A stretch of 64,000 nt of DNA from Thermoproteota archaeon (GCA_027492205.1 JAOZFN010000014.1:32001-96000), one strand, 5' to 3'. Counted from the stretch's first letter, positions 18,122 to 28,139 are shown. Made by a program: numbers and translations. The notes: generated by a model not told the origin, from the sequence alone.

Positions 18122-18736
18122 ATGGCCGACCTCTCGGCGCTACTGCTGCTGGGCGCGCTGAGCCTCCTGGGCGTGATCCTCTACTTGGCGATACACTACA
18201 GCGTCCGGCCAGGAGCGAAGCCCGGGGGGATAGATGATCCTCTCAGGCGAGCATTCCTCAGGTACTCCGTCTTGGCCTCGCTGGTCCTCGTCCTGGGGCA
18301 CGCCTGGGTGGGCGTGGAGGAGATGTTCAGGAGCCTCACAAGGCAGATCAAGCTAGAGCCCGTCTACGTGGCGAACCTGAGGGAGCTGGAGCCCGGGTCG
18401 GCGGTGTCCTTCATGATGCCGGTCGACCCGGACATGCTGCCTGCGGATCACCCCTGCATCCTCATCAGGCTCACGCCGGAGGAGGCCCAGAGGGCCGGGA
18501 GGGAGCTGGTCGCGTACAGCGCCAGGTGCACCCACCTCGGGTGCATAGTGGAGTACCTGGAGACGGACGGCAGAGAGATCTACTGCCCCTGCCACGCTGG
18601 GATATTCGACCCCCTGACGGGGAACCCAATCTCCGGACCCCCGAAGAGGCCGCTCCCGGAGGTACAGCTCAGGGTAGAGGAGGACGGTTCAATCTACGCC
18701 GTGGGGTGGGTGGGGCAAGGTGAGCAGGGCGAGTGA
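18122..18736 (+). CDS. Rieske 2Fe-2S subunit of a Rieske/cytochrome b complex
   Basis: CTHLGC and CPCHAG boxes, GPPKRPLP, and an internal RRAFL twin-arginine-like motif. Confidence 0.93.
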   Translation: MADLSALLLLGALSLLGVILYLAIHYSVRPGAKPGGIDDPLRRAFLRYSVLASLVLVLGHAWVGVEEMFRSLTRQIKLEPVYVANLRELEPGSAVSFMMPVDPDMLPADHPCILIRLTPEEAQRAGRELVAYSARCTHLGCIVEYLETDGREIYCPCHAGIFDPLTGNPISGPPKRPLPEVQLRVEEDGSIYAVGWVGQGEQGE

Positions 18737-20141
18737 GGGTCCCTCCCTCAGGGAGAGGTGGACGCTCAAGTGGTGGGCCAGGGTGCACGGGGGCTGCAAG
18801 ATCCCCCTGCACGCCCTAAGCCCGCTCAACGGCCTCGGCGGCCTGGCGTTCCTCATGCTCCTGATCGAGGCCGTGACCGGCATCATCCTGGGCATGTACT
18901 ACGAGCCCAGGTTCAACGAGGCCAACCTGGCCTACGAGAGCGTTGTCGCCATCACCGAGAACCTCAAGTACGGCTGGCTCCTCAGGGGAATTCACTACCA
19001 CGCCGCCAACCTGATGATCGTGCTCAGCCTGCTCCACTTCCTGAAGACCTACATCGCCGGCAACTACCGAGAGCCGAAGGGCCTCTGCCACGTGGTCGGC
19101 ATCCTGACCGGCCTCCTGGCCATACTGGCCTCCATCACGGGATACTCGATGAGGGCCGACCACATAGGGGCGGAGGCGATCCTCATCGGCCAGACGCTGG
19201 TGAAGTACATGCCCATGGGGGGCCTGCTCTTCAGGATGGTCTACGGGGTCGGCACCATGGACGACGCCCTCATCAGGTACAACGCCTACCACTACGCCCT
19301 CGGGGCCCTGCTGATAGGGCTTGTCCTCCTCCACGTGTGGTTCAGCCACAGGCACCACGCCGCCCCTCCCATGGACGACGGGCCCTCCATCCCCGCGATG
19401 CCCGTCTTCCCGAACTTCCTGCTGTCCGTCCTGTCGGGGGTGTTCATGGTCCTAGGCGGGTTGGTGCTGCTCAGCGTCGCGTTCCCTCCCCACCTAGGCG
19501 TGAAGTACGTGCCGGGAGAGCCCGTCCCGCCCGGCGTGCCGGAGTGGTACATGGTGGGAGACTACACCCTCATCAAGAGCGGCATAAACCCGGTGATCGC
19601 GGGCATGGTCGTACCGCTCCTGGCCGTGACCCCGATAGCCCTCATGCCCTGGATAGACAGCTCTGGGCCCAGGCACCCCAGGCACAGGAGGTTCGCGATG
19701 ACCTACCTGTCGGTGTTCATGGCCGAGTTCACCCTCATGACCGTGTGGGGTTACCTGACCCCGGGTCAGCAGGTCCTGCTCTCGCAGCAGCTTCCGGCGG
19801 CCCTGGCCGTGGCGGTGCTGGCCGCGATCCCGGCCCACTGCGCCACCAGGCCGAGGGTGGTCAAGTTCGGGGCCCCGGAGGCCAAGAGGGTGGAGAAGAA
19901 GCCGATCCTGCCGTGGAGGAATATAGCATCGTGGGTCATGGCGATGCCAGTCGGCGTGGTGACGGCCCTTCTGGGGTGCCAGGTGGCTCTGGCGCTGCTG
20001 GGGTGGTACTGGAACCACCTGGGACTCCAGCGGCTATACGCAATGTCACTGGGCGCCTCGCTGTTCGCGCTCGGGGTCGTGCTGCTGGTGGCCAAGTCGG
20101 CGCTATTCGATCTCGACATGCTAAGGAGGAGGCCTACGTGA
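18720..20141 (+). CDS. Cytochrome b (bc complex)
   Basis: Four heme His ligands (RGIHYHAAN...LHF; YHY...LLHVW), PEWY motif and multiple TM helices. Confidence 0.93.
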   Translation: MSRASEGPSLRERWTLKWWARVHGGCKIPLHALSPLNGLGGLAFLMLLIEAVTGIILGMYYEPRFNEANLAYESVVAITENLKYGWLLRGIHYHAANLMIVLSLLHFLKTYIAGNYREPKGLCHVVGILTGLLAILASITGYSMRADHIGAEAILIGQTLVKYMPMGGLLFRMVYGVGTMDDALIRYNAYHYALGALLIGLVLLHVWFSHRHHAAPPMDDGPSIPAMPVFPNFLLSVLSGVFMVLGGLVLLSVAFPPHLGVKYVPGEPVPPGVPEWYMVGDYTLIKSGINPVIAGMVVPLLAVTPIALMPWIDSSGPRHPRHRRFAMTYLSVFMAEFTLMTVWGYLTPGQQVLLSQQLPAALAVAVLAAIPAHCATRPRVVKFGAPEAKRVEKKPILPWRNIASWVMAMPVGVVTALLGCQVALALLGWYWNHLGLQRLYAMSLGASLFALGVVLLVAKSALFDLDMLRRRPT

Positions 20142-20164
20142 ACGTGGCGTGTCGGAAGGGGAAC

Positions 20165-22297
20165 TCAATTCGGTCCCCCGGGAGTAGCCGCCCTGAACCG
20201 CCAGGTGTCGGATCCGTCCGGAACCCTCTGCCAGGTGCGGCCGTCATCCCGAGTGTCCCTCATCAGTATGGTGAAGTCGACGAGCTTCCCCCTGCTGTCT
20301 ATAAGCTGGACGCACTCATTTCTGTTGTCCAGCCACCTGCCAGAGGGGAGGAAGACGTAGTACGGCTGCCACGGCCAGATTATCGCGAACGGAATCTCCC
20401 GCTCCGCCGGCTCTCCGTGGAGCGCCACGACCCTCCACCCCCGGATGATGACCGGGTACCAGTTTGGATTGTACAGCTCCACCCACTCACCGTCCGCGTC
20501 CCCCCCTTCTGGGTTGAGCTCCACCTCGTTCACGTACACCAGGTGACTCGGCCTCTGCACGACGGCGTACATCCTCCACGCCGCGGTCCCCGACTCTGTG
20601 TCTCCGTCGGTGAAGTGTATCAGGAGGGCCCCCTCGTGAGTCCCGGGGGACGCCGAACCGGCCTCTATCCTGAACGTCACGGCGGCATATCCTCCCGGGG
20701 CTATGGTGGCCTCTCCCACCTTTCCGGCATCCCTCCTCCAGACGAGGGTACCGCCCACCCTCACCTTGTAGATCAGGTCGACCATCTCGCCTGTCGGCTC
20801 GGCCCAGACGTACTGGGTCTCGTCGTCGTAATTCACAAGAACCACTATTCCGTTCCTCACGCTGACCTCGCCCTGTCCAACTATCCCGAGGTCGATTAGT
20901 ATCTGACCGTCGGTGACGTTGCTCCAGTACCGGTCGCCCGTGGCCACGTTGGCCCCCCCTGGGAGGACTATTGAGACCCGCCCTGAGAGTCCCCAGACGC
21001 CATACTCGCTCGCGCTCGCGTACCCTGAGGAGGCCAGCAGTGAGAGGGCGACCAGAGCGACCGCCGCTAGCTTCACTTCCCCCGCCAGCCTCAGCTCCGA
21101 CCTGACCCTGGGATGAGCCCGCCTCCCAGTCATCTCCTCGAGATCTCTCACTATCTCTGCGAGAGTTATCACCTCTTCGTCGCTGAGCCTTCCCCTCGCC
21201 GCCGCAAATCGCCTGGGCAGCTCCTCAAGCATCTGCTCCAGGACGTCTCCCTTTTCCCTGTAGAGGAGCAAGAAGACAACGGGAAGAGCGGAGATAAGTG
21301 CTACGACTAGCGAGTTACCAAAGATTATTCCCGCGAGGGGGTCTAGGTGGGAGAGTCTCTCGAGGGTCGAGTCCGGCAGGATCATGCCGAAGGTGACGCT
21401 CCATATGTGGATCTTCCCACCGAGTTTGACCACACCCTCACTCTGAGGGGCCAGAACGGGCACCCTGAGTTCCACCCTCCCCCCGGCCGGGACGCTGACC
21501 ACCCGCGCGGGCAGCTCTACCATATCCCAAAGCTCTCCCTCCGGGCTCAGTACGGCGGTCGTCGGAAGCATTCCGTCGTTTTCTACCGTTATAGTGAGGT
21601 TCGCCGACCCGCCCGGGGGAAGCGCCACGCTGGTGCCCATCCCCACGGACTCTCTGAGCCTCGGATCCACAATAACCGTGAACCCGACGACGTCGCTGTT
21701 CATCACCCCGAGGATCCCCATCATGACCATCGCCACGAGGACTGCCATCAGCACGCCCGCACGGCCTCCCCTCTCCTTCCTCTCGAGGATTGAGGGTCCG
21801 ATCAGCAGTCCCATGACCACAGCGGATGTCGCGAACAGGCCCGCCGGGTTCGTGAGCACAGACCTCAGCCCGGGACCCAGGTAGATGGCCAGGTAGCCCA
21901 CCCTAGGTACCTTGATCGGCCGACCGCCGAGCGAAAGGGCCCTCCCCCTGACCTGAGAGATGGGGGTGTACTCCACTCCGCATGCCTCCTGATCCGTCAG
22001 CTCGTTCGCATCGCCCTTCGTTACGATACCCTGGTGCGTCACTTCGACGACCCTGTGGAGGACCTCGTACCCGTTGCAGATCCTGACAAGCACTATGTCC
22101 CCCACCTCGACGCCCTTAATGGGCCAGACCACCACCAGGTCTCCCCTCTGAAGGGTGGGCCTCATGGACCCCGAGGTAACGACGCGGAGGGGGTACGGAA
22201 CGCCCAGGAAGGTGGAGGCGATGAAAAACAGAGAGAGGGCGAGCGCGCTCAGGAGGGCCGCATCAGCAGCCACCCTCAGAGCGCGCCGCCAGGTCAT
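20165..22297 (-). CDS. S26B/SipW-type signal peptidase I fused to an Ig domain, internal signal peptide, fibre-subunit paralog and lamin-tail domain
   Basis: VTSGSMRPTL.RGD, VLHRV, TKGDAN and VPRVGY motifs; internal VKLAAVALVALSLLASSGYASA; C-terminal LTD motif YVNEVELNP.G.D..GEWVELYNP. Confidence 0.88.
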   Translation of the reverse strand: MTWRRALRVAADAALLSALALSLFFIASTFLGVPYPLRVVTSGSMRPTLQRGDLVVVWPIKGVEVGDIVLVRICNGYEVLHRVVEVTHQGIVTKGDANELTDQEACGVEYTPISQVRGRALSLGGRPIKVPRVGYLAIYLGPGLRSVLTNPAGLFATSAVVMGLLIGPSILERKERGGRAGVLMAVLVAMVMMGILGVMNSDVVGFTVIVDPRLRESVGMGTSVALPPGGSANLTITVENDGMLPTTAVLSPEGELWDMVELPARVVSVPAGGRVELRVPVLAPQSEGVVKLGGKIHIWSVTFGMILPDSTLERLSHLDPLAGIIFGNSLVVALISALPVVFLLLYREKGDVLEQMLEELPRRFAAARGRLSDEEVITLAEIVRDLEEMTGRRAHPRVRSELRLAGEVKLAAVALVALSLLASSGYASASEYGVWGLSGRVSIVLPGGANVATGDRYWSNVTDGQILIDLGIVGQGEVSVRNGIVVLVNYDDETQYVWAEPTGEMVDLIYKVRVGGTLVWRRDAGKVGEATIAPGGYAAVTFRIEAGSASPGTHEGALLIHFTDGDTESGTAAWRMYAVVQRPSHLVYVNEVELNPEGGDADGEWVELYNPNWYPVIIRGWRVVALHGEPAEREIPFAIIWPWQPYYVFLPSGRWLDNRNECVQLIDSRGKLVDFTILMRDTRDDGRTWQRVPDGSDTWRFRAATPGGPN

Positions 22298-22331
22298 GAT
22301 GCCCCTCTAGCTAGACCAGCTGGCGACTAGA

Positions 22332-22898
22332 TTAACTCTCCGGACTGCCGGGGCTGGACGGGGTGCCGCTCGCGCCCTGCTCCATGCCCTGCATCTGTAC
22401 CGTGAACGCCTGGTCGGATCCCAGCGGGGCCGTCGGGCCTATGCTCAGCATCACCCCGACGGTACCAGTCTCATCGCTGTCAAGTGTGAGCGGGTCGCTC
22501 TGGGTTATCTGGGTCCACGAGCTCCCGGTCCACTTGTAGAACGTCAGGCTCACCCCGCTGGGGAGCCCACTCGTCTCGAACCAGAAGACCCACGTCTCGT
22601 CGTCGTAGTTGGTCACGTTGAAGGCAGCCATGGCCTTGAAGGTCATCCCCCTCGCCCAGGGACCGAAGTCGCACTCGATCATGCTGGAAGAGTTGACGTA
22701 GCAGACGTTGTGGGCCGAGGCGCCGGGGCCTTTCACCGTGTCCAGGCCGGGTATTATCGCAATGTTGGCGCTCTGCGGGGCTACTATGCTGACCCTGGCC
22801 CCGATGCCCGCCTGCATGTACTCGTAGGCCCTGACTCCCACCGAGAGCGTTAGCATCAGGAAGGTGAGGGCCAGCGCGGCCCTTCTCCAGTTGGCCAT
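22332..22898 (-). CDS. Secreted putative fibre/pilus subunit (TasA/DUF1102-like; likely substrate of the adjacent peptidase)
   Basis: Signal peptide MANWRRAALALTFLMLTLSVGVRA, beta-rich mature domain, clear paralogy to the domain inside 20165-22297. The ORF-track extension to 23090 is AT-rich promoter DNA. Confidence 0.7.
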   Translation of the reverse strand: MANWRRAALALTFLMLTLSVGVRAYEYMQAGIGARVSIVAPQSANIAIIPGLDTVKGPGASAHNVCYVNSSSMIECDFGPWARGMTFKAMAAFNVTNYDDETWVFWFETSGLPSGVSLTFYKWTGSSWTQITQSDPLTLDSDETGTVGVMLSIGPTAPLGSDQAFTVQMQGMEQGASGTPSSPGSPES

Positions 22899-22899
22899 G

Positions 22900-23408
22900 G
22901 CCAACACCGCTATACTGTTTAGCCCACCTCCTCTATTAATGTTGGCACCTCTGCTTCTATTGCAAGCAATTGACTTGAAATTCATGCGATATACCGGGCA
23001 TTCTCCCCCATGGAGATATGTTTGAACAATATCTTTAATTTCCTCCGATTGATTTTCATTTTCTCTCATATTAATCAAAACATCTTTCATAAATTGGGTA
23101 TTAAAGTTTACTGCGTGCGGATCTGCAGGAGGCGAAGCTCAGGAGTGAGAAGAGTTACGGAGGTTCGCTTCCCAACTCGGGGAGCCTTGGAAATCGCCTC
23201 AGCCTGTACGTCTTCTCTATCCTGGGCTCTGACCGATCCCCTCTCGCCAAGAATCTCAGATAGGGACTTCAACTCGGTGTAGGAGGAGAAGAGGGCGCGG
23301 GAAAACGTGGTGGAGAATCGTTCAAAGGACTAGACCTCTCATACCCTTCCTCTCGGGCGAGTACGGCAGAGGTAATTAAAATACCGAATGTGTGCTTAAG
23401 AGTTTAAG
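22900..23408. promoter_or_regulatory. Divergent promoter region with inverted repeats
   Basis: AT-rich 22930-23110; ATTGC-AA-GCAAT at 22959-22970; imperfect AGATATGTT-TG-AACAATATCT at 23014-23034; GGTA-N7-TACC near 23371-23385. Confidence 0.55.
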
Positions 23409-25274
23409 ATGAGGCCCACTGGGCGGGCGGCGGACAGGGTGGTGATCCGCCGCCCCATCGTCTTTCTCCTCCTCTCAGGGCTGATGCTCCCAAACGCTCT
23501 CGCGGCCGCCGGAGGTCCACACTCTGGCCGAGTTGTGGTCGGCTGGCGACCCAGAAAGCTCCTCTTCTATTACGGATACCCCAGTCTGTTCAACGGGGCC
23601 GGCGGGAATCTGGAGCGGGCTGCCGCCCAGTTCGACCGCTACGACATCGTGGTCCTAGGGGCCGGCCTCGAGGACCCGGCCCACCCCCAGCACCAGGCCG
23701 CTTCAGCGGTCATAGGACTGAGCGAGGCGCAGTTCTATGGGTACGTCCCGCTTACGCTGCCGATCGGAGAAGTCTGCGAGAGGATAGACGAGTGGGCCGA
23801 CATGGGGGTCGCGGGGGTGTTCCTCGACGAGGGCGGGTACGACTACCTTGCGCCGAGGCTGGGGGGCATCCTGCGGGCCAGGATGCACCAGGTCGAGGCC
23901 GTCCGGTGTGCCAGGGAAAGGGGGCTGGCGGAGGCCCTGAACGCCTGGAACCCCGCAGACGTGCTCGCGTCCTCCCACGGGGAGCCCCCCCTACCGCTCG
24001 GGGAGGGAGACGCGGTGCTGATCGAGAGCTTCGTCTACGGCGCGGGGGAGACTAGGGAGGAGTACCTCTGGCACGTCGACGAGTACGCCCGAATGAAGGT
24101 GAGTGGAGGCCCGGAGTACTGGTGCCTCGTCACCACGGGGGCGGCGAGCGAGCACGAGAACCGACTGGTGGGGTACGACGCCCTGACCTACGCTGGAGAG
24201 ATCTGCGACGCCGTGGCAGTTCAGGAGGACCTTGGGGAGGACTCTACAGTGTTCTACGCGTTCGCCGAGCGGGAGGGAGCGCCCGGATGGCGGAGGATCA
24301 GGGGAATGACGCTGGCCGCCTACTGGGTCGGCGACTTCGACAATCGGACCGAGCTAAGGATCGTGCTGGAGAGGGTCAGGGGCATGTGCCTGAACACGAT
24401 AGCGATTTCTCCCTACTGGGCCACTCCCAACCTGCGATCGACCGAGATAAGGCCGACGGAAGTCACCGTGAGCGACGACGACCTTCGGGCCCTCATCAGG
24501 ATGGCGAAGTCCCTCGGGTTCCGGGTCATGCTGAAGCCCTCCCTGATAGTCGAGACGGGCGAGTGGTTCGCCCTCCTTGATCCGGTGGACAGGGACGCTT
24601 GGTTCGAGTCCTACAGGAGGTTCCTGCTCCACTACGCCGAGATCGCCCAGGAAGAGGGCGTCGAGTATCTGGTGGTGGAGGTGGAGCTCAGCTCGATGGT
24701 CTCAGACGAGAGGTGGTTCGGGCTCATCGACGAGGTTCGGGCCGCGTACTCCGGCCTCATAGGGTACGCCCAGCCGCAGGGTGGGGAGTTCAACCCCCAG
24801 GAGGCCCTGCCCGTGTTCGCGGAGGGGGTCGACTTTATCGGGATAGACGCCTACTACCCCCTGCCCTCGGGGAACCTCTCCGAGATCGCGGGGGCCTGGA
24901 GGGAGATTCACCTGAGGAGGATAGAGCCGCTCGGGCTCCTGTTCGGGAAGCCCGTGGTGTTCACCGAGATAGGCTACAGGAGCGTGGTCGGGGCCGCAGA
25001 TGCCCCGTGGGACTGGCGGTCCGACCTGCCGATGAGCGAGGAGGAGCAGGCCCTCCTCTGGAGGGCCTTCCTGGTGGCCGAGGAGCCGCTCGTAGACGGG
25101 TTCGTCTACTGGGCCGAGACGAGCGGCGAGTGGGACCCGTCTACCGACAAGGGATACTCGATCCTCTACAAGGAGGCTGAGCTGGTTGTGAGGGGGGCGG
25201 CGTGCGGGGGACAGAGACCTCGAGGCAGACCGAGTGTGTACAAATCGAGGTCTTTCGGGTTGTTCCCGCTCTAG
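23409..25274 (+). CDS. Secreted two-domain glycoside hydrolase: spherulin-4/GH114-like TIM barrel plus GH113-like TIM barrel
   Basis: Signal peptide; FYGYV...W..MGV.GVFLDEGGYD; second barrel with GFRVMLKP, WFESY, VEL, FIGIDAYYPL and KPVVFTEIGYRS. Confidence 0.8.
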   Translation: MRPTGRAADRVVIRRPIVFLLLSGLMLPNALAAAGGPHSGRVVVGWRPRKLLFYYGYPSLFNGAGGNLERAAAQFDRYDIVVLGAGLEDPAHPQHQAASAVIGLSEAQFYGYVPLTLPIGEVCERIDEWADMGVAGVFLDEGGYDYLAPRLGGILRARMHQVEAVRCARERGLAEALNAWNPADVLASSHGEPPLPLGEGDAVLIESFVYGAGETREEYLWHVDEYARMKVSGGPEYWCLVTTGAASEHENRLVGYDALTYAGEICDAVAVQEDLGEDSTVFYAFAEREGAPGWRRIRGMTLAAYWVGDFDNRTELRIVLERVRGMCLNTIAISPYWATPNLRSTEIRPTEVTVSDDDLRALIRMAKSLGFRVMLKPSLIVETGEWFALLDPVDRDAWFESYRRFLLHYAEIAQEEGVEYLVVEVELSSMVSDERWFGLIDEVRAAYSGLIGYAQPQGGEFNPQEALPVFAEGVDFIGIDAYYPLPSGNLSEIAGAWREIHLRRIEPLGLLFGKPVVFTEIGYRSVVGAADAPWDWRSDLPMSEEEQALLWRAFLVAEEPLVDGFVYWAETSGEWDPSTDKGYSILYKEAELVVRGAACGGQRPRGRPSVYKSRSFGLFPL

Positions 25275-25332
25275 GCCCAATCTCAAGCCTGGTCCCGGTG
25301 GATCGGCCGCCGGAGAATCAGGGGGGCCTTCC

Positions 25333-26700
25333 TCACGGCCTCCATCCAACGACCTCCCTAGACAAGAATCTGAGGAGAGACTCCAGCTTGAGATATGAGA
25401 GCCACAGGGAGTAGGCAACGTGGTAGGGAACGGTCCAGGGAATGAGATCCGCCCTCCCCTTCGACGCCAGAACCGTCGACGTCACGATGATCCCCGGGAC
25501 GTGCTGGAGCGGTAGGAAGGCGAGGAAGGCCAGAGATATCACCTTGAGCGGCACGGATCCCAGGAGCAGACCGACTCCGGTGAGCCTCGAGATCAGGAGG
25601 GCGAGCGGCACGGCCACGTATCCCAACACGCCCAGCGAAGGGAGTAGATACTCGACCAGGATCAGGTACGCGAAGAGGGCGACTCCCACGGCCCCCCGCC
25701 TCAGGCTGAGTATCATCTCCGGGTACTTGGAGAGGACCTGCAGCCCCCCGACGAACCACCTCACCCTCTGGGACCTCAGCTCCCGAGCGCTCCTCACCGG
25801 CTTGGTCCAGGCGACGGCCTGGGGCGCGTAAACCACCCTGTAACCCCTCCTCCAGGTCGAAAGGGACACGTCAAAGTCCTCCGCAACGGTGTCAGGTGGA
25901 ATCAGACCCATCTCCCTCAGTAGGGACCCCTTGTAGATCCCCATGGCCCCCGGGGTTATGAGCACCCACCCCATGTAGTCCTGGACCGTCTTCCCGAGCC
26001 AGTAGGAGGCGGCGTACTCTATCTCCTGCATCCTCTGCAGGAAGGAGGGCCTGATCGACGGGGCCACCCTCACGTCCCCGGAGGCGGCGCCCACGTCCTC
26101 AGCTCGGAGGGCGTCAACGGCCGCCCGGGCCGCCCACCTGGACAGCACGGTGTCCGCGTCCGTGGTTATTATCACCTCCCCCCTGGCCGATGCTATGCCC
26201 AGGGTCAGGGCCTCCGCCTTTCCCCTGTTCTCGGGGTTGACCAGAACCCTGGCCCCAGCGGCGCGAGCGACTTCGGCCGTTGAGTCCGTGGATCCGTCGT
26301 CCACCACTATGACCTCCAGCCTGTCTTGGGGGTAGTCCTGCCTGAGCGCGCCCTTGACGGCCAAACCGACGGAGAGTTCCTCGTTGTAGGCGGGGATGAC
26401 CACCGACAGGCTCGGCGGGTCTCCCCCGTCTTGGATCACGTCGGTGGGGCGGGACCTCACGGCTGCAAGCCAGACCAAGAACAGGAATAGGTAGACGGAG
26501 ACCAGGAACGCCCCGAGGAGGAGGAACAGGGAGATCACCACAAGGCGTACCTGGTCTGGAGGGGCATCCGGGTAGACCAGGGAGACCAGCCACGGGATGG
26601 CCCTGGTCAGGAACACCCCGTGGGCGGCGGTCCCCCCCACGCTGCCCGCGAGGGCAACCGCGTAGACTGCCCTCCTCCTCCAGCGCCCACCAGAGCTCAA
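25333..26700 (-). CDS. Processive GT2 glycosyltransferase (PgaC/IcaA/cellulose-synthase-like)
   Basis: IPAYNEE, DDGSTD, GKA.AL, DADT, AEDFD and QRVRW motifs (D,D,D,QxxRW), with N- and C-terminal TM helices. Confidence 0.92.
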   Translation of the reverse strand: MSSGGRWRRRAVYAVALAGSVGGTAAHGVFLTRAIPWLVSLVYPDAPPDQVRLVVISLFLLLGAFLVSVYLFLFLVWLAAVRSRPTDVIQDGGDPPSLSVVIPAYNEELSVGLAVKGALRQDYPQDRLEVIVVDDGSTDSTAEVARAAGARVLVNPENRGKAEALTLGIASARGEVIITTDADTVLSRWAARAAVDALRAEDVGAASGDVRVAPSIRPSFLQRMQEIEYAASYWLGKTVQDYMGWVLITPGAMGIYKGSLLREMGLIPPDTVAEDFDVSLSTWRRGYRVVYAPQAVAWTKPVRSARELRSQRVRWFVGGLQVLSKYPEMILSLRRGAVGVALFAYLILVEYLLPSLGVLGYVAVPLALLISRLTGVGLLLGSVPLKVISLAFLAFLPLQHVPGIIVTSTVLASKGRADLIPWTVPYHVAYSLWLSYLKLESLLRFLSREVVGWRP

Positions 26701-28139
26701 AGGGCGGTCCCTCCGACGGCCCTCCTAAGGGCGTCGCTCGGGTACAGCTCGGTCAGGCCCCCGACATCCGCGGCGGCGACCGCCCCTATGTCTACCAGCC
26801 ACCTAACCAGCCTGACCACCCTCTCGAGCGGAGCCCCCATCTCCACGGCAATCTCCTCCGGCGTGAGCCCCGGCCTCTCAGAGATGAGGGTCAGCACCCT
26901 CCAGGTGAGCGGGTCGGCGGCCAGGCTCATGGCCAGGACCAGCTCCCTGTCCCTGGGGTGGAACCAGAGCCTCCCGACCCCCCTGACCACCGCCGAGTCG
27001 ATCAGCCCGCAGGCCTCCATGGCTGCCAGCCTGACCTTCGTGGGAATCCTGCACCCCTCACACTCCGCCTCCAGCTCGGGGAGAGACCTCCCAGGGGCGT
27101 CGAGGATCAGGGAATACAGCTTTCCACTGGACCTGTCGGCCCTGAGCACCTTCCTCAAGATGGGCCTCAGGGGCATCAGGGCTGCCACGCCCGCGGCGTA
27201 GGGCGCGTAGCCGACCAGCGTCGCGCCCAACAGGGCCGCGTAGGATAGGCTGGCGAACCACGCCACCCCCCTGGGAGTCGCGATGGACGCCGCCGCGGAC
27301 CTCACCAACGCCGCCGCCCTGTCCCACGCTGGCGGGGGTCTGGGCACCACGCCCTCCTCGGCCGCCGAGAGAGCGCGACCGACCAGCTCCAGGATCCCCC
27401 CGGATTTGACCTTCGACTCCACGACCGGGACCACCGGGTTGAAGGCCAGCGTGAGCACCGCGCCCCCGCCAGAGCGGCAGGCGACGATGGCGGGTGAGCC
27501 GTCCGCTTCTGACGTGGCGAGGACCGAGCAGTTGGAGGATGGTCTCAGGTTCGCCCACCACAGGGAGGGGTCGTAGCTCGCCGTCACCGACCCCCCTACC
27601 TCGTGGATAGTCACAGTCCCGGTGCCGGTGTTCAGCGAGGTGAGCTCAACTCCGGTCAGCTCCTCGAGAGGGGGAGACCAGCTCTGCGAGTAGGTGTTTA
27701 GGCCCACCAGCAGGACCCTCCCCTCGCCCACCACCCGGCCGAGGGCTCGAATCTCCTCCTCGGTGATTGCCCCGCCCTCGGTCCAGGGGACGTTCAGGTC
27801 TGGGATCCAGATTTCGGAGAAGCCTCTCAGGAACCAGGTGTCAGACAGCCTCTCCCTCTCTTCGTCCGCCCCCGAGTACTCAGAGCCGAGGTAGAGGACC
27901 TCAACCCTGATCTCGCGACCCTCTGCCTCAGACAGCGAGCCGGCCAGCTCCTTCCCGAACCTGACGTCCTCGACGTCTGAGGCTACCAGGAGGACGCTGG
28001 GGGGAGGGGTCTGCCCACCCCTGGTCTCACTTCCCCCCTGGACCGCAGAGCCGGGGAGAAGCGCGCCCGCGACCAGGAGCACGGAGGCGGAGAGGGCGAT
28101 AAGCAGAAGAGGCCGAGGGGCTGACTGGGATCTGGACAA
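26697..28139 (-). CDS. Membrane protein with extracellular GATase1-like domain and C-terminal winged-HTH domains
   Basis: Signal peptide, PAIVACRSGGGAVLTLAFNP, TM helix, then LTLISERPGLTPEEIA...VRWLVDIGAV. Confidence 0.75.
   Translation of the reverse strand: MSRSQSAPRPLLLIALSASVLLVAGALLPGSAVQGGSETRGGQTPPPSVLLVASDVEDVRFGKELAGSLSEAEGREIRVEVLYLGSEYSGADEERERLSDTWFLRGFSEIWIPDLNVPWTEGGAITEEEIRALGRVVGEGRVLLVGLNTYSQSWSPPLEELTGVELTSLNTGTGTVTIHEVGGSVTASYDPSLWWANLRPSSNCSVLATSEADGSPAIVACRSGGGAVLTLAFNPVVPVVESKVKSGGILELVGRALSAAEEGVVPRPPPAWDRAAALVRSAAASIATPRGVAWFASLSYAALLGATLVGYAPYAAGVAALMPLRPILRKVLRADRSSGKLYSLILDAPGRSLPELEAECEGCRIPTKVRLAAMEACGLIDSAVVRGVGRLWFHPRDRELVLAMSLAADPLTWRVLTLISERPGLTPEEIAVEMGAPLERVVRLVRWLVDIGAVAAADVGGLTELYPSDALRRAVGGTAL

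Follow-up and report, generated by a model that had tools for sequence, protein, structure and literature searches.

The DNA analysed here, a 64,000-nucleotide stretch from a Thermoproteota archaeon (GCA_027492205.1, JAOZFN010000014.1:32001-96000; hereafter the window), carries two adjacent (-) strand genes in which a signal peptidase appears to be encoded together with its own putative substrates. Gene 1 (22332-22898) encodes a 188-amino-acid precursor of a pilin-like subunit (P0002) when translated from the ATG at 22898. Gene 2 (20165-22297) is a single open reading frame (ORF) that runs without a stop codon for 710 amino acids (P0001). An initial annotation of this DNA had described P0001 as a peptidase joined to a relative of the gene-1 product, and had proposed that the enzyme releases a minor tip or initiator subunit of a filament. 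The uninterrupted frame, the peptidase, the transmembrane (TM) regions and the second signal peptide that it named are all present. An enzyme that carries its own signal-peptide substrate within the same polypeptide is unusual among type I signal peptidases, and no such self-substrate fusion is mentioned in the literature that was searched. The words ‘fused’ and ‘fusion’ do not occur in the available text of PMC11821415, nor does ‘fused’ in that of PMC9245690; supplementary tables of the papers on tafi filaments and archaeal bundling pili (ABP) might list fused forms.

Domain architecture of the fusion protein

The features of gene 2 described below all lie on the (-) strand. Residues 1-150 (21848-22297) comprise a first TM helix (TM1, about residues 15-33) and a signal peptidase catalytic domain of the archaeal and endoplasmic reticulum (ER) type. 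The TIGR02228 model (sigpep_I_arch) matches residues 16-121 with 59.7 bits against a cut-off of 51.85, and with 62.4 bits in a search of the genome; the SipW model reaches only 34.3 bits against a cut-off of 190. Human SEC11A (7p2p) matches the peptidase region with an E-value of 9.4e-13, such that the SGSM, HRV and GDxN boxes align, and S44, H81, D96 and D102 are invariant in all three fusions that were aligned. Following the family literature, we take these boxes to supply the Ser, His and Asp residues of a Ser-His type enzyme, as opposed to the bacterial Ser-Lys type. The fused peptidase is probably active, judging from the residues it retains.

The catalytic domain is followed by a hydrophobic hairpin with a short basic loop (TM2-TM3, residues 153-199; 21701-21841), which was located by hydropathy scan and whose layout is common to all four fusion sequences scanned and to the unfused relative P0016. 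A predicted second extracytoplasmic domain (residues 200-320; 21338-21700), which may be Ig-like by analogy with TafD as described in PMC11821415, leads to TM4 (residues 324-345; 21263-21328), the helix that closes the peptidase module. In relatives that are not fused, such as P0016 and a 360-amino-acid protein of genome G037, the chain stops 10-25 residues past this helix. Gene 2 continues with a charged, probably helical linker that is predicted to be cytoplasmic (residues 346-405; 21083-21262), an internal Sec-type signal peptide (residues 406-429; 21011-21082), a subunit-like beta-sandwich domain paralogous to gene 1 (residues 430-583; 20549-21010), and a candidate lamin-tail domain (LTD; residues 584-710; 20168-20548) that is a putative distal or adhesive module.

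Hydropathy resolves five hydrophobic segments in the complete protein, at about residues 15-33, 153-171, 181-199, 324-342 and 404-428, and all five are kept in each of the four fusions scanned in this manner. The first four are the TM-like segments of the peptidase module, with ~110 amino acids between the third and fourth. Because basic residues fall on the predicted cytoplasmic sides (the positive-inside rule), the simplest topology places the N-terminus inside and the catalytic domain outside, followed by the hairpin, the ~110-residue domain again outside, TM4, the linker in the cytoplasm and finally the segment that resembles a signal peptide.

A separate signal peptidase gene is located on contig C6, and its 212-amino-acid frame scores 90.1 bits, above the fused enzyme. 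Since a housekeeping peptidase thus exists elsewhere, the fused peptidase is best viewed as a dedicated, private enzyme similar to SipW and TafD. It is encoded in addition to the housekeeping enzyme and together with the pilin-like gene, from which it is separated by a spacer of 34 nucleotides containing a GAGGGG box.

Conservation of the fusion and of its internal signal peptide

A profile made from three fusions was searched against 1.84 billion representative sequences, which gave 15,179 hits at E <= 0.001. Coverage of the full profile occurs in three of the best 150 hits, namely P0003 (713 amino acids), P0014 (915 amino acids) and P0015 (890 amino acids). Eight distinct and uninterrupted fusion sequences are now recognized in four lineage clusters: the window protein, P0003, P0013 (from genome G025), P0014, P0015, P0163, P0164 and P0165. 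They belong to separate assemblies, with NCBI, ENA, Logan, the GTDB genome G025 and the window as their sources, and identity between clusters falls to about 30%. The window belongs to a draft assembly of 17 contigs, in which a lost stop codon or an indel could have joined two genes by error. However, this explanation is effectively refuted, because eight distinct sequences in four clusters all keep the junction open. Homologs are fused as well, and the comparison leads us to consider the fusion real and selected.

The fusion is also rare. Searches of 43 genomes from the phylum recovered its full-length form in two, G000 and G025, and among 401 genomes sampled, a profile of the subunit matches strongly only in these two. 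Seven further genomes match the subunit profile weakly (E 1e-5 to 1e-3), over partial ranges in large or unrelated frames. An ortholog of P0002 (187-191 amino acids, 50% identity) resides directly upstream of the fusion in G025 and on the metagenome contig L044, as it does in the window. L044 was the single locus among 186 pattern matches when metagenomes were scanned with the gene-1 alignment; it is closely related to the locus in G025, and the contig ends inside the peptidase. A scan of genome contigs yielded 27 loci, only one of which (L017, residues 4-583) runs past the peptidase domain, and this representative is probably from the same lineage as G025. A word-based search for relatives of gene 1 recovered, among 174 candidates, only the window's own 217-amino-acid call of this gene.

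Peptidase relatives of 500-640 amino acids (P0019-P0111) were also considered as possible substrate fusions, and were dropped because their extra C-terminal part is polytopic membrane. In these proteins, TM4 is followed by a block of two to six hydrophobic segments with no subunit, and at most 38 residues remain past the last such segment (six sequences read; hydropathy of 149). Pfam searches with ten of them found the peptidase only.

Two fusion subtypes can be distinguished by their distal modules. The LTD type includes the window protein and P0003, and the longer type spans 890-931 amino acids. Because the long type replaces the LTD while the peptidase, the signal peptide and the subunit domain stay in place, the distal module appears to be swappable. 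The lamin-tail assignment made in the initial annotation falls below the Pfam cut-off in the window protein (PF00932, residues 586-674, 26.5 bits against 34.3), but the ortholog P0003, which is 50% identical to P0001 overall and 56% identical over the LTD part, exceeds this cut-off (45.5 bits). In a structural model of residues 430-710, the LTD region has a pLDDT of about 75-87. Many other proteins, of 137 to 2277 amino acids, match the last ~125 positions of the three-fusion profile at E <= 1e-18; for 17 of them the alignment across the LTD part is good, with W176, N181 and D245 conserved.

The C-terminal part of the long type (~300-400 amino acids), which is unrelated to the LTD, has no match in Pfam. 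In P0013 (L004 559-3306), P0014 and P0015 this region carries a conserved Pro/Asp-rich stretch and many N-x-S/T sites. Both long-type loci also encode a KaiC-family ATPase (221-223 amino acids, 98.9 bits) directly upstream of the standalone subunit (L004 4046-4711 in G025 and L044 3534-4205); the window has no counterpart at the same position.

The two halves of the fusion are connected by the linker and the fifth hydrophobic segment. The ~60-residue linker is present only in fused forms, and its residues E358, L360, L379, L386, E387 and R393 are invariant in the three fusions aligned. The segment that follows has a basic n-region, an h-region of ~13 residues and a polar c-region ending in ASA|S, a small-x-small site from which a cut after A429 is predicted. 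All eight fusion sequences have A at position -1 and A or V at position -3, and seven of them have xEY at positions +1 to +3 (P0164 has FGY). The three standalone subunits share the site A|YEY, which in P0002 is predicted to be cleaved as VRA|YEY. The second signal peptide of the fusion looks like a genuine Sec signal, and the site predicted for its removal mirrors the one in the standalone protein. The same unusual continuation past both sites, an aromatic residue or Ser and then Glu-Tyr, suggests that one enzyme recognizes both. A parallel is found in TasA, where, according to PMC10269814, an aromatic residue just after the cleavage position causes the general peptidase to fail and makes SipW necessary.

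By its sequence features, the fifth segment looks like a signal peptide that is cleaved and not like a membrane anchor. Were it to stay uncleaved, the fused subunit domain would form the base or platform of a filament, much as TafF might, on a peptidase that processes incoming major subunits. There are precedents for parts of such an arrangement: for Clostridium perfringens BsaA, strand exchange has been proposed to occur before SipW cleavage, with oligomers anchored in the membrane (passages of PMC11580942), and the second domain of TafD reportedly resembles TafA in structure (PMC11821415). We nevertheless regard a permanent tether as decidedly unlikely, because the conservation of the h-region, the polar c-region, the residues at -3 and -1 and the xEY continuation is of the kind expected for a cleaved site and not for a plain anchor. 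In addition, the order of genes in related clusters equates the fused module with a tip-type protein of two domains, and not with TafF.

The same segment raises the possibility that two proteins are made from one frame. The in-frame GTG at 21076, which the initial annotation had pointed out as a potential internal start, is indeed present and forms the first codon (21076-21074) of the signal peptide it had quoted (residues 408-429). Translation from this codon would yield a C-terminal protein of 303 residues that begins with Met-Lys and the signal peptide; the full-length product would then be minor or irrelevant, and the long ORF would reflect the mere loss of a stop codon between two coupled genes. 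The sequence GTG-AAG precedes the hydrophobic core both at codon 408 of the window gene and at codon 427 of the G025 gene, V-K occupies the corresponding place in P0003, and a G-rich stretch is located just upstream of the window's GTG. The corresponding unfused genes in G037 overlap by 4 nucleotides, and coupling of this sort could have given rise to a single frame with two products. However, this G-run lies only 2-3 nucleotides from the GTG, which under the usual spacing rule is too close for a typical Shine-Dalgarno sequence, and P0015 and P0165 lack V-K at the corresponding place. All eight fusions keep the frame open over a partly conserved linker even where identity is down to about 30%. 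We therefore judge separate translation an unlikely account of the locus compared with a single precursor cut after A429, and both products could in any case coexist.

Subunit-like domains and their genomic setting

The domain that follows the internal signal peptide is paralogous to the 188-amino-acid protein, as the initial annotation had claimed on the basis of short matching segments. BLASTP aligns residues 411-503 of P0001 with residues 7-111 of P0002 (34/106 identities, E 5e-7), and hhalign relates the standalone and fused profiles with a probability of 95.4% (E 1.8e-8). An alignment of seven sequences (three standalone and four fused) spans the whole domain of ~160 amino acids and contains 11 invariant columns (E2, Y3, A20, N21, A23, N73, D75, D76, E77, W104 and P159), among which N73, D75, D76 and E77 make up an N-[YF]-D-D-E motif. 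From these alignments, the paralogy is judged to be beyond chance. The most conserved stretch in both paralogs is formed by the first ~25 residues past the predicted cleavage site, which would be the donor strand in a filament built by strand exchange.

In gene 1, the signal peptide occupies residues 1-24, and the mature protein of 164 amino acids ends in a tail rich in Ser, Thr and Pro. The tails of standalone subunits (residues 176-188 of P0002 and the C-terminus of P0012) are conserved, S/T/P/G-rich and devoid of a hydrophobic anchor, and the last block of the P0002 model has a pLDDT of 44. Such a tail could be glycosylated or could serve as a spacer.

An AlphaFold2 model of mature P0002, computed from a multiple sequence alignment (MSA) of seven sequences, is all-beta (pLDDT 81.4, pTM 0.77). 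Foldseek comparison of this model with the PDB places strand-complemented filament subunits at all of ranks 1-9 (E 1.4e-4 to 3.1e-3, probability 0.98-1.00): seven entries for FimA, AbpA (7ueg; rank 2, E 1.7e-4, TMq 0.48) and the Sulfolobus thread protein Saci_0406 (7pnb; rank 9, E 3.1e-3). The TM-scores of 0.38-0.49 are below 0.5, and therefore this likeness is a resemblance of class and not proof; gene 1 models as a beta-sandwich similar to donor-strand pilins. The FimA entries 5NKT, 2M5G, 6R74 and 6R7E, which were matched here, are those that PMC11821415 names, in the relevant part of its text, as nearest to TafE. The initial annotation had suggested TasA and AbpA as structural relatives. 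AbpA is recovered by predicted fold, along with FimA and the thread; TasA is not among the 50 Foldseek matches listed and resembles these proteins by analogy only. The ESM Atlas gave a further lead, in which P0002 scores 0.95 (206/256 shared features) to a DUF1102 cluster and also 0.95 to Thermoproteota clusters.

The AlphaFold2 model of residues 430-710 is confident at its own positions 54-155, but the 53 residues ahead of these, presumed to include the donor strand and the first strands of the fold, have a pLDDT below 50. PapD-like two-Ig chaperones, transglutaminase and similar structures were rejected as kin of this region (TM 0.23-0.30, rmsd 12-15 Å). A complex prediction that paired residues 430-583 with mature gene 1 gave scores of 0.89, 0.00 and 0.00, of which the median is under the mark and which come without controls, and this result is used neither way.

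The two genes behave as an accessory cassette, because the entire cassette is absent from G001, the nearest sister genome, whose flanking DNA is 92% identical at the nucleotide level. In G001 (L047, contig C23), the end of the cytochrome b gene is ~110 bp from the start of the GH113 gene, and in the window this interval is 3.3 kb (20123-23398). No obvious repeats or mobile-element genes were found at the cassette junctions in the stretches compared between the window and G001.

Immediately 5' of gene 1 is an AT-rich intergenic stretch (22899-23130, (-) strand) that might serve as an archaeal promoter or leader. The G+C content at 22900-23100 is only ~34%, compared with ~65% in the surrounding sequence and genome, and for this reason the region looks non-coding. 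The mechanical ORF of P0002 extends to 23090 (252 amino acids) by using ATG codons inside this stretch. The gene caller's version (P0011, 217 amino acids) probably starts too early as well, and the 188-amino-acid form from the ATG at 22898 is the most plausible product of gene 1. A GGAGGTG box is located ~30 nucleotides before this start, which is far for a Shine-Dalgarno site. A scan for bacterial-type promoters and terminators returned nothing useful; its model is bacterial and is uninformative for archaea.

Directly downstream of the cassette, on the opposite strand, are overlapping genes for a Rieske protein (204 amino acids) and a cytochrome b (473 amino acids; together 18122-20141), whose predicted products point to a respiratory lifestyle for this archaeon. 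Three genes at 23409-28139 are divergent from the cassette. They encode a 621-amino-acid GH113-domain protein (154.8 bits) whose N-terminus is signal-like, a multi-spanning family-2 glycosyltransferase of 455 amino acids with weak chitin-synthase-like matches, and a secreted-looking protein of 480 amino acids with a weak C-terminal match of the MarR type. This region may be an exopolysaccharide or matrix locus beside filament genes.

A proposed minimal strand-donation system and its relatives

Unfused relatives indicate how the fusion might have been assembled. The nearest is P0016 (367 amino acids, 233.5 bits, profile positions 6-355), which ends ~10 residues past TM4. In G037, the order of genes is three DUF1102 genes (two of which were scanned, with 107.6 and 140 bits), the peptidase of 360 amino acids, a signal-peptide protein of 462 amino acids, and DUF5305. 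The G037 peptidase matches residues 10-338 of P0001 (27% identity, E 6.3e-19). The 462-amino-acid protein has an N-terminus like that of a DUF1102 subunit and a DUF11 domain, and its start overlaps the stop codon of the peptidase gene by 4 nucleotides. This taf-like layout has been described for Archaeoglobus and Thermococcus in PMC11821415. That paper assigns the TafD homolog an Ig-like second domain besides its four TM helices, and it showed by deletion and complementation that TafA processing requires TafD. The gene beside the peptidase is described there as a two-domain TafC analog, which AlphaFold places at the tip and whose N-terminal donor strand starts assembly.

Given this synteny, gene 2 is best read as a peptidase and a TafC-like subunit between which a stop codon has been lost. 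The identification of the fused module as a minor tip or initiator subunit is strengthened in this way, and the tafi system (TafD/TafC) is a nearer described relative than TasA or the AbpA-type bundling pili named in the initial annotation. Overall, what that annotation observed holds, and its interpretation is supported in part, by the fusion, the signal peptide, the pilin-like fold modelled for gene 1, the synteny and the dedicated peptidase.

We lean toward the view that the locus is a minimal two-gene, donor-strand filament system of the tafi/TasA-like kind, in which a TafD-like peptidase has merged with a TafC-like minor subunit. Cleavage, the identity of the cleaving enzyme, polymerization, and the position and role of the LTD-bearing subunit are steps that we infer as follows. 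Gene 1 would provide the major subunit, a Sec-secreted beta-sandwich of ~164 amino acids whose N-terminal strand is freed by a cut at A|YEY. Gene 2 would represent two genes that, in relatives lacking the fusion, lie side by side with coupled translation, now merged such that a TafD/SipW-type peptidase (TM1, catalytic domain, TM2-TM3, second outside domain and TM4) precedes a TafC-like subunit (signal peptide, pilin-like domain and LTD). After insertion with five spans, the fifth hydrophobic segment would act as an internal signal peptide. A cut after A429, most economically made by the protein's own peptidase domain or by that of an adjacent copy, would then free a 281-amino-acid subunit bearing the LTD. 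One such subunit would be produced per peptidase molecule, and it would nucleate or cap the gene-1 filament by N-terminal strand donation.

Several results weigh against this proposal. Pfam gives nothing for P0002, and PF06510 (DUF1102) has no match at E <= 1 in P0002 or P0012. When the subunit profile was compared by hhalign with four proteins of the DUF1102 cluster (L007), the probability was 1.2%, so the kinship to DUF1102 that the initial annotation had raised fails by sequence and is favoured only by the ESM Atlas lead. The subunit profile has no matches at E <= 10 among PDB sequences, and a link to TasA (Peptidase_M73) is absent from the Pfam results as well as from the 50 Foldseek matches listed. 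The TM-scores to pilins are low and were obtained with a model derived from only seven sequences, and the model of residues 430-710 finds only generic tandem-Ig matches in the PDB (TM 0.23-0.30). DUF5305/TafG (PF17231), which is said to assist TafD and is present beside the G037 cluster, was matched in neither G000 nor G025, genomes that are 96% and 95% complete, respectively. The housekeeping peptidase could be the enzyme that cleaves. Finally, the two fusions read at the DNA level (window and G025) each carry GTG-AAG just ahead of the hydrophobic core, and for this reason a separately translated C-terminal protein is possible.

Some of these results would also suit a locus that makes no filament at all, where gene 1 and the C-terminal module would be secreted or S-layer-associated beta-sandwich proteins (e.g. 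adhesins or matrix binders) that do not polymerize, and a dedicated peptidase would be needed because of the unusual cleavage site. Pfam, PDB sequence and hhalign searches give no sequence link to a proven filament family, the structural scores remain below 0.5, and the LTD occurs in many secreted proteins that are not part of filaments. Furthermore, aromatic residues near the TasA site are described as demanding SipW over the general peptidase (PMC10269814, in part). Even so, we hold this explanation to be very unlikely: the nine top-ranked structural matches are strand-complemented subunits of filaments without exception, the peptidase module appears to be of the TafD type found in taf-like pilus clusters, and a small subunit of the abundant type accompanied by a larger paralog with a distal domain is the standard pattern of major and minor pilins.

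A bolder form of the donor-strand proposal, which we entertain with considerable doubt, is that the peptidase itself is the assembly machine. Made already tethered to its first substrate, each enzyme molecule would prime one filament at its own active site, and would go on to couple every later cleavage of a major-subunit signal peptide to strand insertion. If this is true, the locus would encode a pilus of two genes that has no chaperone or usher, and the peptidase with its second outside domain would play the part of the usher. The fusion would also constitute Rosetta-stone evidence that, in every tafi/TasA-like system, peptidases of the TafD/SipW type work while physically associated with the subunit that nucleates the filament. 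How chaperone-free donor-strand filaments in archaea and Gram-positive bacteria (tafi, ABP, threads, TasA and BsaA) are nucleated at the membrane, and why they need a private peptidase, are open questions on which the fusion bears. That such a peptidase is joined to the two-domain minor subunit in a conserved natural fusion is a genetic argument for the pair working jointly, in a 1:1 ratio, when assembly begins. With only two genes in a 3.3-kb cassette, the system is very small and amenable to direct testing.

Among described systems, the tafi and taf-like clusters of Haloarcula hispanica and Natrinema, also predicted in Archaeoglobus and Thermococcus, consist of the pilins TafA and TafE, the tip protein TafC, TafD, TafG and the anchor TafF, according to portions of PMC11821415 and PMC12337348. 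The window locus resembles them in its dedicated peptidase of the ER/archaeal type, for which four TM helices and a further outside domain are predicted, and in the modelled beta-sandwich fold of its small subunit, to which FimA-type pilins come closest among solved structures. The larger minor subunit, in which a pilin-like N-terminal domain precedes a distal C-terminal one, is likewise encoded beside the peptidase, and the signal peptides are of the Sec type, as in the non-halophilic taf-like clusters. However, the peptidase and the minor subunit are here one polypeptide, and the cassette has two genes only, with no TafG/DUF5305 and no adapter, anchor or regulator gene within it. The subunits are not recognized by the DUF1102 model, and the distal domain is an LTD, whereas that of tafi is laminin-G-like.

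The tapA-sipW-tasA operon of Bacillus subtilis offers a parallel in logic. There too, an archaeal-like dedicated peptidase shares its locus with the main subunit of a fibre and with a minor protein that nucleates or anchors it. TapA nucleates and SipW processes both proteins, N-terminal strand donation would be common to the two systems, and unusual residues follow the cleavage site in each. Unlike the fused peptidase, SipW has no second domain and is not joined to TapA, and the subunits show no homology to TasA or Peptidase_M73 by Pfam or among the 50 Foldseek matches listed.

The AbpA/AbpB bundling pili of Pyrobaculum calidifontis (7UEG) and the Sulfolobus threads (7PNB) resemble gene 1 in predicted fold, although the search of PDB sequences shows no similarity between them and the subunit. 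Beside the ABP pilin is encoded a larger signal-peptide protein that is proposed to be an initiator or adhesin, and PMC9245690 states that no dedicated peptidase gene could be identified nearby; such an enzyme is present here. Chaperone-usher type 1 pili include the best structural matches (FimA), and they show the pattern of a major subunit with a two-domain tip subunit. This likeness is one of analogy only. The window locus has no chaperone, usher or outer membrane, and its pilin-like domain comes first and the distal domain last, the reverse of FimH.

A last parallel concerns the precursor itself. Signal peptidase also processes some polyproteins, the structural regions of flaviviruses among them, by cutting at signal sequences within the chain, and in these, as proposed here, an internal hydrophobic segment and a small-x-small site direct cleavage on the outer or luminal face. 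In the flavivirus arrangement the peptidase is a separate enzyme of the host, whereas in the archaeal fusion it would be part of the same precursor.

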